DNA from: Thermoplasmatota archaeon
Lineage (GTDB): Archaea > Thermoplasmatota > Poseidoniia > Poseidoniales > Thalassarchaeaceae
DNA: 51,295 nt
Assembly (NCBI GenBank): GCA_036251765.1
Contig: JAZANL010000021.1
Location: 1 to 51,295 of the forward strand
Reading direction: 5' to 3'
Shown here: positions 41,349 through 44,840 of the stretch, piece after piece
How the letters are laid out: every line of letters starts with the position of its first letter
Numbering within the stretch: the stretch's first letter is position 1
Notes under the pieces: model-generated
What the model was told of the DNA's origin: nothing
Database searches by the model: none
The model's input: only the letters and a program-made list of their open reading frames with translations
Program-made: the position numbers and the translations under genes

Positions 41349-41543
41349 ATGGGACCGATATGGCCCTTCAAGAAGAAGAAACCGGCAAAACCGGCTATTT
41401 CACGAACAAATTACATGAAGAATGTGGTAGAGTACGAGAAGAAATCCGGAAAGAAAGAAAGTAAGCATGAAGATAAAAGTCACCTCGAGAGCAAGAAGTT
41501 CTTGGACGCAAAGAAGCTTTTGTCAAAGGATAAGGATGACTAG
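41349..41543 (+). CDS. Small Lys-rich protein of unknown function
   Basis: 64-aa ORF filling the gap between rnhB and pheT; its stop interlocks with the pheT stop (CTAG, 41540-41543). Confidence 0.55.
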   Translation: MGPIWPFKKKKPAKPAISRTNYMKNVVEYEKKSGKKESKHEDKSHLESKKFLDAKKLLSKDKDD

Positions 41544-43294
41544 GAGACGGGATCAGGAATCAGGGAACTAACTACTTCCAGATCGATTTCACCCGCTTGA
41601 ATTGGAGACTTAATTCCGAATTCACCACTCACCTCGGGGGAAATTTCTCCAAACTCCCCGATGCTCTCCCCCTTGACCATAATTTGACTCCCTCTTCCGG
41701 TAATCCATGGTCCGTGTCCGGGCGGGGTGGATACGAATTCTACATCACCAGGATCTGCACCTAGGTCCCTAAGTAGGGCCTGCACTATCCCCTTCGAGGC
41801 AGTGAAACCACTACCAACCTCTGCACACGTCCAAGCGCCTCTACGGCAATTACTGAAACCCTTCACAACGGTGCCCAATTCATACACCCTCTGAGGCAAT
41901 TCGTGATGCCTATTTGCAGCAAGCAATCTCAGCAGTGAAGGGAGGATGTATTGCCTCAATACAGTGTGGTCAGATGTTATCGGATTGGAAATTAAAGCCA
42001 TGCCTTGCTCTTGTGGCCACCTAACGATTTCGAATTGATCCCTCTCATTTGAAAGAGTCAGGCCCTGAACCTCCTGAAGTCCGCATGCCCTCATACTTTC
42101 GCCAAACCGCCTATCTAGATTAGAAGACGCCAGAGGAATCGCATCTAGATGCGTTTTTGACAGTATTTCTGGTAGATTTTCAAAACCATGCCCTATTGCA
42201 ATGTCCTCCACAATATCAACGGGGTGCATTATGTCACTTCTCCAACGAGGCATCGAAACAATATGCTCAATCTCCCCCACAACACAGTCAGCCCATCTTC
42301 CACGTTCATTGGGACCGTCAGTAACGGTTTGGCTCCCTTCCAATACGCCACCCATTCTTCCTATTGCACGAGATAACTCCTCTGGCCCCAACTCTAAACC
42401 CAGAATTTTACTAATCAGACTTTCTGGAACCCTGTGCTTCCTGGCTCCCCCATTGGGCACTCTAAATGCCTCGTCATTCGAATCAGTCAATTCGATACTC
42501 TCAACCATGCCTCCTCTTTCCGACATTGATAGGCAAACAAGTAGCAGACAAGATTCGCAGGCCCTAACATCCCAACCAGTTACATCGATGAAGAAATCAC
42601 TAGTCCCCTCGTGAACGGTTGTGTGAGCCCCATTGATAATTGGTGGAAATGAAAGAACCTTGTCTTCCGAATCCAAAATCACGGGAAAACGACTCATTCC
42701 ATCCATTAGGTGGGCATACTCGGCTCCTTTCGGATGCTCTTCCAGTATCTGCTCTATTGACATCTCCTCTGAACAGGCGAGAGGAATGAATGAGAAATTA
42801 GACGGTACCGTTGTCACTTTGAAAGGAGGCTTCAGGGAGTTCAGGTCGTGGACTCCTATGGATGCGAATTTCCTCTTCCTCCCCAATGTCATGTGTAGCT
42901 TTTCCTGGTGATCCATCAGAGATTGAATAAACTCCTCTTTTTCTTCTGGACTAGATCCGGTGTCAACCCCCCTAACCACCGCACCCAAAACTACAGGCCT
43001 GACGTCTTCTAATTCAGGTTCTACTGAGACTCTGACATCTCCTTGAGACACCGGTAAGATAACCTCTACTTCCTTGCTTGAAAGGAACGATCGAGAAGCC
43101 CTCGCAATATTCTCATGACTCAGTAGGTCAGGCCGATCCGGAAAGACTTCCACTTCTATTGACTCGTCGCTATTGCTATCTACCGGGCATCCCAATTCCG
43201 GCAACCACTCGGACCAATAATCGGCCCTATGCTCGATCCCGTGAATTTTCTGGATGTAACTGAGTATTGAGTGTTTGAAATCTAGAGTAGGAAT
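41540..43294 (-). CDS. pheT: Phenylalanine--tRNA ligase beta subunit (archaeal type), probable ATT start
   Basis: DRPDLLS, QEKLHMTLGRKRK, SFPPIING, RSDIMHPVDIVEDIAIGHG, NPITSD, LPQRVYE. The frame extends upstream of TTG 43204 to ATT-CCT-ACT (I/M-P-T) at 43294. Confidence 0.93.
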   Translation of the reverse strand: MPTLDFKHSILSYIQKIHGIEHRADYWSEWLPELGCPVDSNSDESIEVEVFPDRPDLLSHENIARASRSFLSSKEVEVILPVSQGDVRVSVEPELEDVRPVVLGAVVRGVDTGSSPEEKEEFIQSLMDHQEKLHMTLGRKRKFASIGVHDLNSLKPPFKVTTVPSNFSFIPLACSEEMSIEQILEEHPKGAEYAHLMDGMSRFPVILDSEDKVLSFPPIINGAHTTVHEGTSDFFIDVTGWDVRACESCLLLVCLSMSERGGMVESIELTDSNDEAFRVPNGGARKHRVPESLISKILGLELGPEELSRAIGRMGGVLEGSQTVTDGPNERGRWADCVVGEIEHIVSMPRWRSDIMHPVDIVEDIAIGHGFENLPEILSKTHLDAIPLASSNLDRRFGESMRACGLQEVQGLTLSNERDQFEIVRWPQEQGMALISNPITSDHTVLRQYILPSLLRLLAANRHHELPQRVYELGTVVKGFSNCRRGAWTCAEVGSGFTASKGIVQALLRDLGADPGDVEFVSTPPGHGPWITGRGSQIMVKGESIGEFGEISPEVSGEFGIKSPIQAGEIDLEVVSSLIPDPVS

Positions 43295-43298
43295 TTTC

Positions 43299-43305
43299 TC
43301 ACCTC
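43299..43305 (-). promoter_or_regulatory. Shine-Dalgarno GAGGTGA for pheT, overlapping the upstream TGA stop
   Basis: - strand reads GAGGTGA-GAAA-ATTCCTACT. Confidence 0.75.
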
Positions 43306-44840
43306 AGATCTAACCACATCTTCAGGGGGCGATCATATCCAACCAGCCTAAGGCCAGAAATTGCAGCGGTATCAAAATCATTGGCTCGCAGGTTCCTCCT
43401 CCCTATCCTCTCGATCCTATCCACCCCTATTTCCCTCATCCAACTGCGAATTCCCACGGATAATTCGCTAATCTTCGAAGCCAAGTCACTTTCGGGACAT
43501 GGTGAAACCAATGCAGTACATCCGGAAGCAACTGCTACAATCAGGTCCTTGGCATCGGGTTCGTGCAATACCTCAATCATCACAAATTTGCCAGTTTCCG
43601 CAATTCCCATTGCCTTGGCAGCTAAACCAATCTTAGGAAGTGAGGAGGCTAGACGGGAACCGCTTCTGGTTGCACAGTTAACTACGGCACCATCCAACTC
43701 TAAGTCCATTACTAGTCTGAAAAGACGCTCTATTCTGTCAATTCGCCCTCTAAGTAAAATTATCGAATTTTCAGACATCCTGCTGCGAAGTGAAATTAGC
43801 ATAGCTTCTATCTCTGCGTCATTCAGTCCCGGGAAATCACTGATATCGAAAACAATGCCAGAACAGTTTCCAGCACTATCAATTGCTTCGCAGAACTCAT
43901 TTTTTCCTACCAATAGAAAATCGCAACTCCTTGTTTTTGTTCTGACAATTGCCGGGGAATCTACGCCTTCCCAATTTTCAGATCCTATTGTTGTCTCACA
44001 ACTAATCATCCAGGGTATTTTCAATAGCGATCCCCCTGAATCTGATCCATCTTGAACTAGAAGTGTGTAGTGATCGAGAGGTGCATTATTGGATAACGAA
44101 TCCTCATTTGGGTATAGTGAAATATTCTCAAAACCCTCAGAGATGAAATCTTCCGATTTCTCAATTCTCGTTGAAGTGTCATCCCCTGGTTCTAGAACTA
44201 AAGCATCATCATTGAGGCTCAATCCCATTGGATCTAGCAATTTAGCGAATTCAGAAATCTCAGATTTCTTTATCGATCTCATATCCACACCATCGGGCGG
44301 AGGCGGACAACTGCCAGAGATGATTATCCTGCCTCCTGTCATACCTATGCCGGGCTCAGAACCAACCGAACCCATGACTACTATCGAACCCCCCGACATC
44401 CCTGATCCTAGGCGATCACCTGAATGCCCTCTAACTAGGAGGGTGCCTCCCGTCATGGATGAACCCGACTCATCCCCGGTCGATCCTTGGATAGATATCT
44501 CTCCACCAGCCATAGAGAATCCTGCCTTGTCCCCCACGTCTTTCTCTACTACTGTTTTTCCAGATAGCTGAAAGGCTCCGAGCATAGAACCAGCATCTCC
44601 CCTAATCGTCAAAGTTCCTCCTCTGTTTGCGGCTCCAACACAATCGCCAAATGACCCTAGGCAGAGTACTCTTGCCCCATCAGGCAAATGAGTCATTACT
44701 CCAAATTCTCCGTCCTTGGGTCTCTCATCACCGGCTCTCCCCCATCCAATCTTGACTGGACGATTCTGCTCTAATGCCTGCTCGACATACCTGTCTAGGT
44801 CATTGTTGAGTTTCAAACTCTTATTGACAATATCCCTCAA
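43299..44840 (-). CDS. Glutamate-synthase-like fusion: GXGXG beta-helix domain + degenerate FMN-binding domain
   Basis: Repeats GDxxGxxMxGGxI; C-terminal RRNLRA...AAISGLRLVGY resembling ends of GltB2/GlxD-type FMN subunits; TTG start. Confidence 0.75.
   Translation of the reverse strand: MRDIVNKSLKLNNDLDRYVEQALEQNRPVKIGWGRAGDERPKDGEFGVMTHLPDGARVLCLGSFGDCVGAANRGGTLTIRGDAGSMLGAFQLSGKTVVEKDVGDKAGFSMAGGEISIQGSTGDESGSSMTGGTLLVRGHSGDRLGSGMSGGSIVVMGSVGSEPGIGMTGGRIIISGSCPPPPDGVDMRSIKKSEISEFAKLLDPMGLSLNDDALVLEPGDDTSTRIEKSEDFISEGFENISLYPNEDSLSNNAPLDHYTLLVQDGSDSGGSLLKIPWMISCETTIGSENWEGVDSPAIVRTKTRSCDFLLVGKNEFCEAIDSAGNCSGIVFDISDFPGLNDAEIEAMLISLRSRMSENSIILLRGRIDRIERLFRLVMDLELDGAVVNCATRSGSRLASSLPKIGLAAKAMGIAETGKFVMIEVLHEPDAKDLIVAVASGCTALVSPCPESDLASKISELSVGIRSWMREIGVDRIERIGRRNLRANDFDTAAISGLRLVGYDRPLKMWLDLR

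Follow-up and report, generated by a model that had tools for sequence, protein, structure and literature searches.

A Proposed AUU Start Codon for pheT in a Thalassarchaeaceae Archaeon and Turnover of the pheT Start Codon across the Family

INTRODUCTION

The stretch of DNA analyzed here, referred to as the window, is the 51,295-nucleotide contig JAZANL010000021.1 of assembly GCA_036251765.1, which derives from an archaeon of the Thalassarchaeaceae (Marine Group IIb) whose own genome is labelled G000. Its minus strand carries pheT, the gene for the beta subunit of archaeal phenylalanine--tRNA ligase (PheRS). The best explanation of the 5' end of this gene, taken as a whole, is that pheT is translated from an AUU codon at 43294-43292, positioned by a Shine-Dalgarno (SD) sequence and probably fed by termination-reinitiation from the gene upstream, a reading that we hold with considerable confidence. 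That the AUU is a genuine start appears well supported by comparison with relatives. At least three near-cognate starts are predicted for this genome, the pheT AUU among them, and start codons at the pheT junction turn over across the family.

AUU start codons are established in bacteria, in infC (encoding IF3) and in pcnB of Escherichia coli. In the mechanism proposed for pheT, the initiator Met-tRNA (anticodon CAU) would pair with AUU with a mismatch at the third position, and the product would begin Met-Pro-Thr-Leu, as it does in relatives that use AUG. The 30S subunit would be placed by the sequence GAGGUGA 4 nucleotides upstream, a stretch supplied by the final codons of the upstream gene together with its UGA. 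Ribosomes terminating at the UGA inside this SD would re-initiate 4 nucleotides further on, or the SD would recruit 30S subunits anew. Such a tight, SD-anchored context may make a near-cognate start tolerable.

ANATOMY OF THE pheT JUNCTION

Read on the minus strand, the pheT frame runs TGA (43306-43304) GGT GAG AAA ATT (43294-43292) CCT ACT CTA GAT TTC. The first canonical codon (ATG, GTG or TTG) in this frame is the TTG at 43204, 30 codons past the ATT. The initial annotation had described this arrangement, with its upstream TGA and its 30 codons lacking ATG, GTG or TTG, accurately to the base. When open reading frame (ORF) starts are limited to the canonical codons, the ORF spans 41540..43204, begins with TTG and encodes 554 amino acids; when the starts of NCBI table 11 are allowed, it spans 41540..43294, begins with ATT and encodes 584. 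The frame of the upstream gene reads ...GAT CTG AGG TGA and stops at 43301-43299, also on the minus strand. The features of the junction are as follows, in window coordinates.

43292..43294, minus strand: ATT, proposed start codon of pheT (to be read as Met by initiator tRNA), aligned to TIGR00471 position 1
43295..43298, minus strand: spacer GAAA, 4 nucleotides, from the SD and upstream stop to the ATT (sequence)
43299..43305, minus strand: SD sequence GAGGTGA, 7-nucleotide complement of the genome's own 16S rRNA 3' end
43299..43301, minus strand: TGA stop of the upstream GXGXG-domain gene, within the SD (sequence, ORF list)
43304..43306, minus strand: in-frame TGA closing the pheT frame, 4 codons before the ATT (sequence)
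43202..43204, minus strand: TTG, first canonical in-frame codon, rejected as start (ORF list)
41540..43294, minus strand: pheT coding sequence, 584 codons plus stop, archaeal phenylalanine--tRNA ligase beta subunit (TIGR00471, Pfam)
43299..44840, minus strand: upstream co-directional gene for a 513-residue GXGXG-domain protein, FwdC/GltB-domain-like (PF01493 at 2e-11)

The identity of the gene is clear from family models. TIGR00471 (pheT_arch) matched with 400.1 bits (E 1.4e-119), above its curated cut-off of 282.65, and the PheT domains PF03483 (B3_4), PF03484 (B5) and PF17759 (tRNA_synthFbeta, the beta-chain CLM domain) all scored above their gathering scores. In the TIGR00471 alignment, residues 2-574 of the protein correspond to profile positions 2-549 of 551, and because residue 2 falls on profile position 2, the ATT occupies the Met position of the model. 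In the stop-to-stop translation, the same alignment begins at residue 5, again at profile position 2. Local alignments to solved structures start at PheT query residues 17-47 and are uninformative on the N-terminus. A single pheT match was found in the 1.20-Mb assembly, which is 84.6% complete.

START CODONS ACROSS RELATIVES

A search of the genus with the N-terminal 120 residues of PheT matched 40 of 44 genomes; with loci from further searches, 41 loci with an N-terminus were obtained, genome G023 giving two. The codon at the start position is ATG at 17 loci, ATT at 11, TTG at nine, CTG at three and ATA at one, and it is ATG in all eight loci from two other families of the order. Relatives with ATG begin MPTL or MPTI at the same position, which agrees with the earlier proposal that archaeal PheT typically begins MP(T/V)I and that the (I)PTL of the window matches it. 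All ATT, ATA and CTG loci of the genus have an in-frame stop 3-5 codons upstream with no canonical codon between, and their next canonical codon lies 16-88 codons downstream at a varying position.

The distribution of these codons was placed on a quick maximum-likelihood tree of PheT (47 rows), in which the first residue was written as M in every row. Two short rows were left out of the tree, and a fragment containing only the C-terminus (L022) had been lost already at the N-terminal search. Nine ATT rows and the ATA row form one clade with a Shimodaira-Hasegawa-like approximate likelihood ratio test (SH-aLRT) value of 99, and a nine-row clade with ATG is its sister. The CTG rows, three in all, group in a clade of their own (100), the TTG rows fall into two or three groups, and one further ATT row (G046) stands apart on a long branch. 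Members of the ATT/ATA clade have GAAA, GAAC or GCAA as the spacer between SD and start, and they reach their first canonical codon after 22, 30, 33 or 37 codons, which leaves the clade with no conserved alternative start. The near-cognate codon itself is directly observed across these genomes, and a near-cognate pheT start is, on this comparison, predicted to be kept across about ten species. The two pheT 5' ends of G023 lie on separate contigs, L021 on C223 and L033 on C22, and begin with ATG in one case and ATT in the other. Because the tree places them in different clades, that bin probably mixes two species.

A scan of named public genomes, covering 80 loci titled Candidatus Poseidoniales, Thalassarchaeaceae, Thalassarchaeum or Marine Group II, whose species overlap the genus set, found ATG at 45 loci, TTG at 14, CTG at 11, ATT at nine and ATA at one. 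No codon other than these five was found at the PheT start position in the 41 genus or the 80 family loci. All of the variants are one mismatch from AUG, as is expected for a start codon and not for a sense codon. CTG occurs in two unrelated groups among the family loci and has thus arisen at this junction at least twice. The second CTG group (L240, L243, L245-L247, L249, L250 and L289) reads LPTITLSH... behind CTGAGGTGTTAAT, and a canonical codon lies just 5 codons downstream in most of its loci. Judged from these alignments, the start codon of pheT appears to be evolutionarily labile in the family, with AUG, UUG, CUG, AUU and AUA as its putative states.

SELECTION ON THE CODONS THAT FOLLOW ATT

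The codons between the ATT and the first canonical codon carry a signature of translated sequence. Among 11 sequences of the ATT/ATA clade (55 pairs), codons 2-30 have a nonsynonymous divergence (dN) of 0.141 and a synonymous divergence (dS) of 0.863, a ratio of 0.16, while dN/dS over codons 31-200 is 0.085. Amino acids barely change over codons 2-18, and codons 2, 4, 7, 9, 13 and 14 vary synonymously only. These values point to purifying selection on codons 2-30 of pheT, which would place the start of translation somewhere after the TGA and before codon 2. The codons available in that interval are GGT, GAG, AAA/AAC/CAA and ATT/ATA, of which only the last is one mismatch from AUG.

CONTIG SUPPORT FOR THE ATT

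The stretch was found in 20 public runs, and contigs from four runs of four studies (three DNA libraries and one RNA library) were compared over 42700-43900. No alternative letter was present at 43292-43294 in the contigs of any of the four. One DNA contig covers 42700-43900 entirely. The contig from the RNA library covers 42700-43650, across the gene junction, although a contig is no proof that one transcript covers both genes, and such a library may contain DNA.

In two metagenome runs, unitigs break exactly at the 31-mer 43283-43313, which spans the SD and the ATT and is itself present without differences, and short contigs with 3-6 differences overlap this 31-mer. These observations indicate that several co-occurring strains share the junction sequence at 43283-43313.

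SHINE-DALGARNO SEQUENCE, COUPLING GEOMETRY AND INITIATION MACHINERY

The 16S rRNA of this genome ends in ...GGATCACCTCCT, and GAGGTGA (43305-43299) pairs with 7 bases of this 3' end. The initial annotation had placed this SD 4 nucleotides before the ATT with the upstream stop inside it, as is indeed seen in the sequence; the last three bases of the SD are the TGA of the upstream gene, and the distance from stop to start is likewise 4 nucleotides. A 4-nucleotide spacer is the mode in the genome, found at 73 of the 221 first-canonical starts that have an SD of 5 nucleotides or more.

In a study of native Haloferax volcanii and E. coli gene pairs, the available text treats distances of -8 to +10 nucleotides as predictive of termination-reinitiation and describes a steep drop in re-initiation with distance (PMC10666635). 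The geometry at pheT fits coupling, because 4 nucleotides lies within that range. Termination at the upstream TGA followed by re-initiation at the ATT is probable from the arrangement of the two genes, and translation of pheT may depend on the upstream gene. Of the earlier proposal of an AUU start served by termination-reinitiation, the start position, which is conserved, and the coupling geometry stand, while coupling itself is a candidate mechanism.

The gene upstream of pheT encodes a GXGXG-domain protein that scored under the cut-off of TIGR03122. Throughout the order, this gene keeps its 3' end and its place next to pheT. The gene for the other subunit, pheS, is not upstream of pheT and sits on a separate contig (G000:C71:4181-5110; TIGR00468, 348.3 bits), where it has a canonical start (GTG/ATG).

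The initiation machinery of the genome looks ordinary. An unusual initiator tRNA was considered as a cause and rejected, the tRNA having a CAT anticodon, A1 and the GGG/CCC anticodon stem. Loss of the initiation factor aIF1 (SUI1) was likewise rejected, judged by presence of the gene, sequences aside: SUI1 was found in 35 of 41 genomes, including the own genome, 18 of 24 incomplete genus genomes besides it and 16 of 16 genomes of other families. The own genome has two aIF1 (SUI1) matches with identical scores, G000:C14:20793-21008 and G000:C66:155-370, which reflect either a true duplication or a region assembled twice. Elsewhere in this assembly, ORFs at G000:C73:12093-12929 and G000:C30:38697-39539, on different contigs, have an identical N-terminal translation, which suggests redundant contig ends.

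NEAR-COGNATE STARTS ELSEWHERE IN THE GENOME

Among 939 non-overlapping gene-like ORFs of the genome, 214 have 15 or more codons from the upstream stop to the first ATG, GTG or TTG. These long-leader ORFs were translated from the stop and scanned in two halves of 107 against family models. Pfam gave matches for 81 of 107 and 56 of 107 and flagged two genes, argS and a DUF373 gene; NCBIfam, applied to the first half only, gave matches at 1e-25 for 56 of 107, and the two genes that it flagged were argS and pheT. A family alignment beginning before the first canonical codon was thereby found for 3 of the 214 ORFs, namely pheT, argS and the DUF373 gene. Ten 'close' rows of this screen are ambiguous, and the one inspected, an asparaginase, has a normal TTG start. 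Near-cognate starts thus seem rare in this genome, and the three putative ones are a lower bound, because ORFs with shorter leaders lay outside the screen. The two further genes are listed below.

G000:C62:29336-31096, minus strand: argS (arginine--tRNA ligase), apparent ATT start (loci L054 and L140; relatives L141-L169)
G000:C34:11510-12631, minus strand: DUF373 membrane-protein gene, apparent ATA start (loci L053 and L170; relatives L171-L199 and L321-L350)

The apparent ATT start of argS lies two codons past an in-frame TGA, with the next ATG 15 codons on. In the stop-to-stop translation, where the first ATG is residue 18, the TIGR00456 alignment begins at residue 10. In the own genome, this ATT lies 11 nucleotides after an upstream TGA that runs directly into GGTGAT. 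The same arrangement is found at all 30 genus loci, where an upstream ORF of ~420 codons ends in a TGA that leads straight into GGTG... and the start lies 9-11 nucleotides past the stop. The start codon at these loci is ATT at 25, ATC at two and ATG at three. TGAGGTG(A/G)T is retained at the 27 ATT and ATC loci and is degraded, to TGAGGTTTG or TGAGGCTG, at the three where the codon is ATG. At many of the ATT loci, a GTG within the SD lies in frame three codons upstream and could serve as the start; a stop separates that GTG from the ATT in the own genome and in two others. In the sister family, N-terminal alignments of ArgRS start at residues 4-30 and are too weak to place the start.

In the DUF373 gene, position 1 of the Pfam model falls two codons past the ATA, the next canonical codon is 60 codons on, and the upstream stop in the own genome is 38 nucleotides away. 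The 30 genus loci have ATA (16), ATG (13) or GTG (1) at the start, and an in-frame GTG lies two codons upstream of the ATA in eight of the 16 ATA loci and is lacking in the other eight. The sister family mostly has an ATG or GTG start, apart from two near-cognate loci. Of these, G060 (L336) lacks a canonical codon upstream, whereas G076 (L325) has one at a distance of four codons.

Scans anchored on SD sequences revealed no clear surplus of near-cognate codons in the genome as a whole. With 5-mer SD matches, ATT (25) was no commoner across the genome than unrelated codons such as AGA (31). A ranking of leaders by codon-usage log-odds brought up the DUF373 gene and argS and left pheT outside the top 30, the method being too insensitive.

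ALTERNATIVE EXPLANATIONS

An error of sequencing or assembly, or a private mutation of ATG, could produce the ATT through one G-to-T change, and the window does come from a metagenome-assembled genome. The initial annotation had itself allowed that the base at 43292 might be wrong or that all close relatives might have ATG. The former is answered by the contigs, which keep ATT in four of four runs from four studies, and the latter by the alignment of pheT 5' ends, in which ten other genus loci have ATT and one has ATA; nine ATT and one ATA also occur among independently deposited records. Contradicted by both contigs and relatives, and already refuted as far as contigs show, this account retains next to no probability. 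A start at TTG 43204 would shorten PheT by 30 N-terminal residues and turn the ATT region into an untranslated leader. It is the sole ATG/GTG/TTG option and is what a caller restricted to those codons would report, yet the ratio of 0.16 over codons 2-30 with its synonymous-only positions, the TIGR00471 alignment from residue 2 and the shift of the first canonical codon between 22 and 37 codons within the ATT/ATA clade all speak against it and leave it very improbable. Recoding might instead bridge the two genes, through a +1 shift at AGG-UGA that fuses the upstream protein to PheT or through a start at GTG (43302-43300) followed by a -1 slip on A-AAA. The letters of the window allow both, with GAG AAA ATT following the stop in the +1 frame and GTG AGA AAA and a run of AAAA before the ATT, and an SD just ahead of a stop resembles the prfB frameshift site. 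However, the AAAA run is missing in L031, L032 and L042 (GAGAAC ATT) and in L045 (GAGCAA ATT), re-pairing of AGG on GGU after a +1 slip would not be expected, and recoding would make the ATT an ordinary sense codon, at odds with the restriction to ATG, TTG, CTG, ATT and ATA in the 41 genus and 80 family loci. On these comparative grounds (the letters of the clade and the restricted codon set), both the +1 fusion and the GTG start with a -1 slip were rejected, and recoding is hardly credible.

A different kind of alternative accepts the AUU start and takes it as a selected regulatory device, as in infC, that ties the output of PheRS (and ArgRS) to a stringency set by aIF1. In its favor, two of the three near-cognate starts found in the genome lie in aminoacyl-tRNA synthetase genes, ATT is retained through a clade with pairwise dS near 0.86, and the available text of a review states that aIF1 proofreads initiation complexes in archaea (PMC7531240). 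Yet AUU is limited to a subclade, sister pheT lineages have ATG, TTG or CTG, argS has ATG at 3 of 30 loci, and aIF1 is not lost in the genus, being present as in relatives. AUU is also not found throughout the orthologues in the manner of infC, ATT or ATA occurring at 12 of 41 genus and 10 of 80 family loci. PheRS beta has no known role in initiation, and PheRS has no known part in start-codon selection, so no feedback loop would arise. Lability of the start codon in the family is more in keeping with drift or dosage tuning than with a device dedicated to regulation. The infC-like autoregulation raised in the initial annotation is thus not borne out, given an AUU confined to a subclade with ATG, TTG and CTG in sister clades and a synthetase that is no initiation factor; the sensitivity of PheRS levels to aIF1 that was raised with it is shared by near-cognate starts in general, with no sign of a regulatory loop. 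Regulation of the infC type or sensing of aIF1 is accordingly unsupported, and a selected device of this sort is improbable.

Several points weigh against the AUU start itself and its coupling to the upstream gene. Use of the AUU by the ribosome is an argument wholly from comparative sequence. Support for its letters comes from assembled contigs and not from reads, and because contigs drop rare variants, minority alleles at the ATT would be invisible. A second pheT copy elsewhere in the genome keeps a small measure of possibility, as the assembly is 84.6% complete, and co-transcription of the upstream gene and pheT is not proven by a contig that spans both. The near-cognate codons that follow a strong SD show a weak excess in frame (77 of 1176, against 93 of 2337 out of frame, 1.6-fold) that codon usage could explain, and near-cognate initiation therefore seems to be no general habit of the genome. 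ATT is described as a rare non-canonical start with ~0.3% of the efficiency of ATG in E. coli (PMC10666635, available text, quoting Hecht 2017). With AUU this weak where it was measured, an essential gene would need a compensating context, for which the SD is a candidate only. The mean longest SD match is 6.6-7.4 nucleotides at non-ATG loci versus 6.0 at ATG loci, and an SD of 7 nucleotides or more is present at 21 of 23 non-ATG versus 11 of 24 ATG loci (47 rows), but this compensation is a trend that is not significant over four phylogenetically independent pairs (sign test p 0.125-1).

RELATION TO KNOWN SYSTEMS

The proposed pheT start shares with the AUU starts of infC and pcnB a conserved gene, AUU where homologues have AUG, a position behind an SD and decoding by initiator tRNA. 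It differs from infC in that the infC AUU is very widely kept and provides feedback, since IF3 discriminates against AUU; in pheT, the AUU occurs in a subclade of one archaeal genus, the gene encodes a subunit of a tRNA synthetase, and aIF1, not IF3, would be the factor responsible for fidelity. Translational coupling by termination-reinitiation has reportedly been examined in gene pairs of H. volcanii and E. coli. Like the coupled pairs in the available text of PMC10666635, pheT and its upstream gene are co-directional, have a stop and a start a few nucleotides apart (+4 being in range) and have an SD within the upstream 3' end. In contrast, those pairs use ATG, GTG or TTG, mostly in ATGA or TGATG overlaps, with ATT mentioned in that text as a possible cause of rare -5 overlaps, and they are enriched for subunits of one complex, whereas the partner of pheT encodes an unrelated GXGXG-domain protein.

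Ribosome profiling of H. volcanii identified ~30% of putative alternative initiation sites as near-cognate, which were set aside as possible false positives according to the available text (PMC7261190). The pheT case resembles these sites in that archaeal ribosomes appear able to sit on near-cognate codons as initiation sites; it differs in that the sites described there are mostly alternative or internal, while the pheT AUU is retained from species to species and would be the sole start of an essential, conserved gene. The words 'AUU', 'non-AUG' and 'near-cognate' are absent from the main text, as available, of a 2020 review of archaeal initiation (PMC7531240). Literature searches on AUU or non-canonical ATT starts in archaea, on pheT with AUU and on Poseidoniales start codons found nothing on this case. 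NCBI table 11 already permits ATT, ATA, ATC and CTG as rare starts, and the pheT ORF is found once these are allowed, but the table is silent on which genes or lineages use them.

IMPLICATIONS

In these archaea, which are very abundant in the ocean, callers limited to ATG, GTG and TTG would remove 22-88 residues from PheT in lineages with ATT, ATA or CTG, and ArgRS and the DUF373 protein would be shortened in a similar way. There is hardly any record in Archaea of conserved natural near-cognate starts in essential genes, and a junction of ~20 nucleotides with ATG, TTG, CTG, ATT and ATA variants among close relatives offers a natural substrate for the study of archaeal start-codon stringency, including SD pairing, termination-reinitiation and the part of aIF1.

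A broader and more speculative model, which we consider rather doubtful, would apply to Thalassarchaeaceae genes whose UGA lies within a strong SD or directly next to one: ribosomes terminating there would stay tethered and re-initiate 4-11 nucleotides on with relaxed start choice. AUU, AUA, AUC and CUG would then be the sole regular starts of essential genes such as pheT and argS, and codon and SD strength would co-evolve to set synthetase dosage. If true, it would be the first example in Archaea of natural and conserved re-initiation at near-cognate codons by SD-tethered ribosomes.

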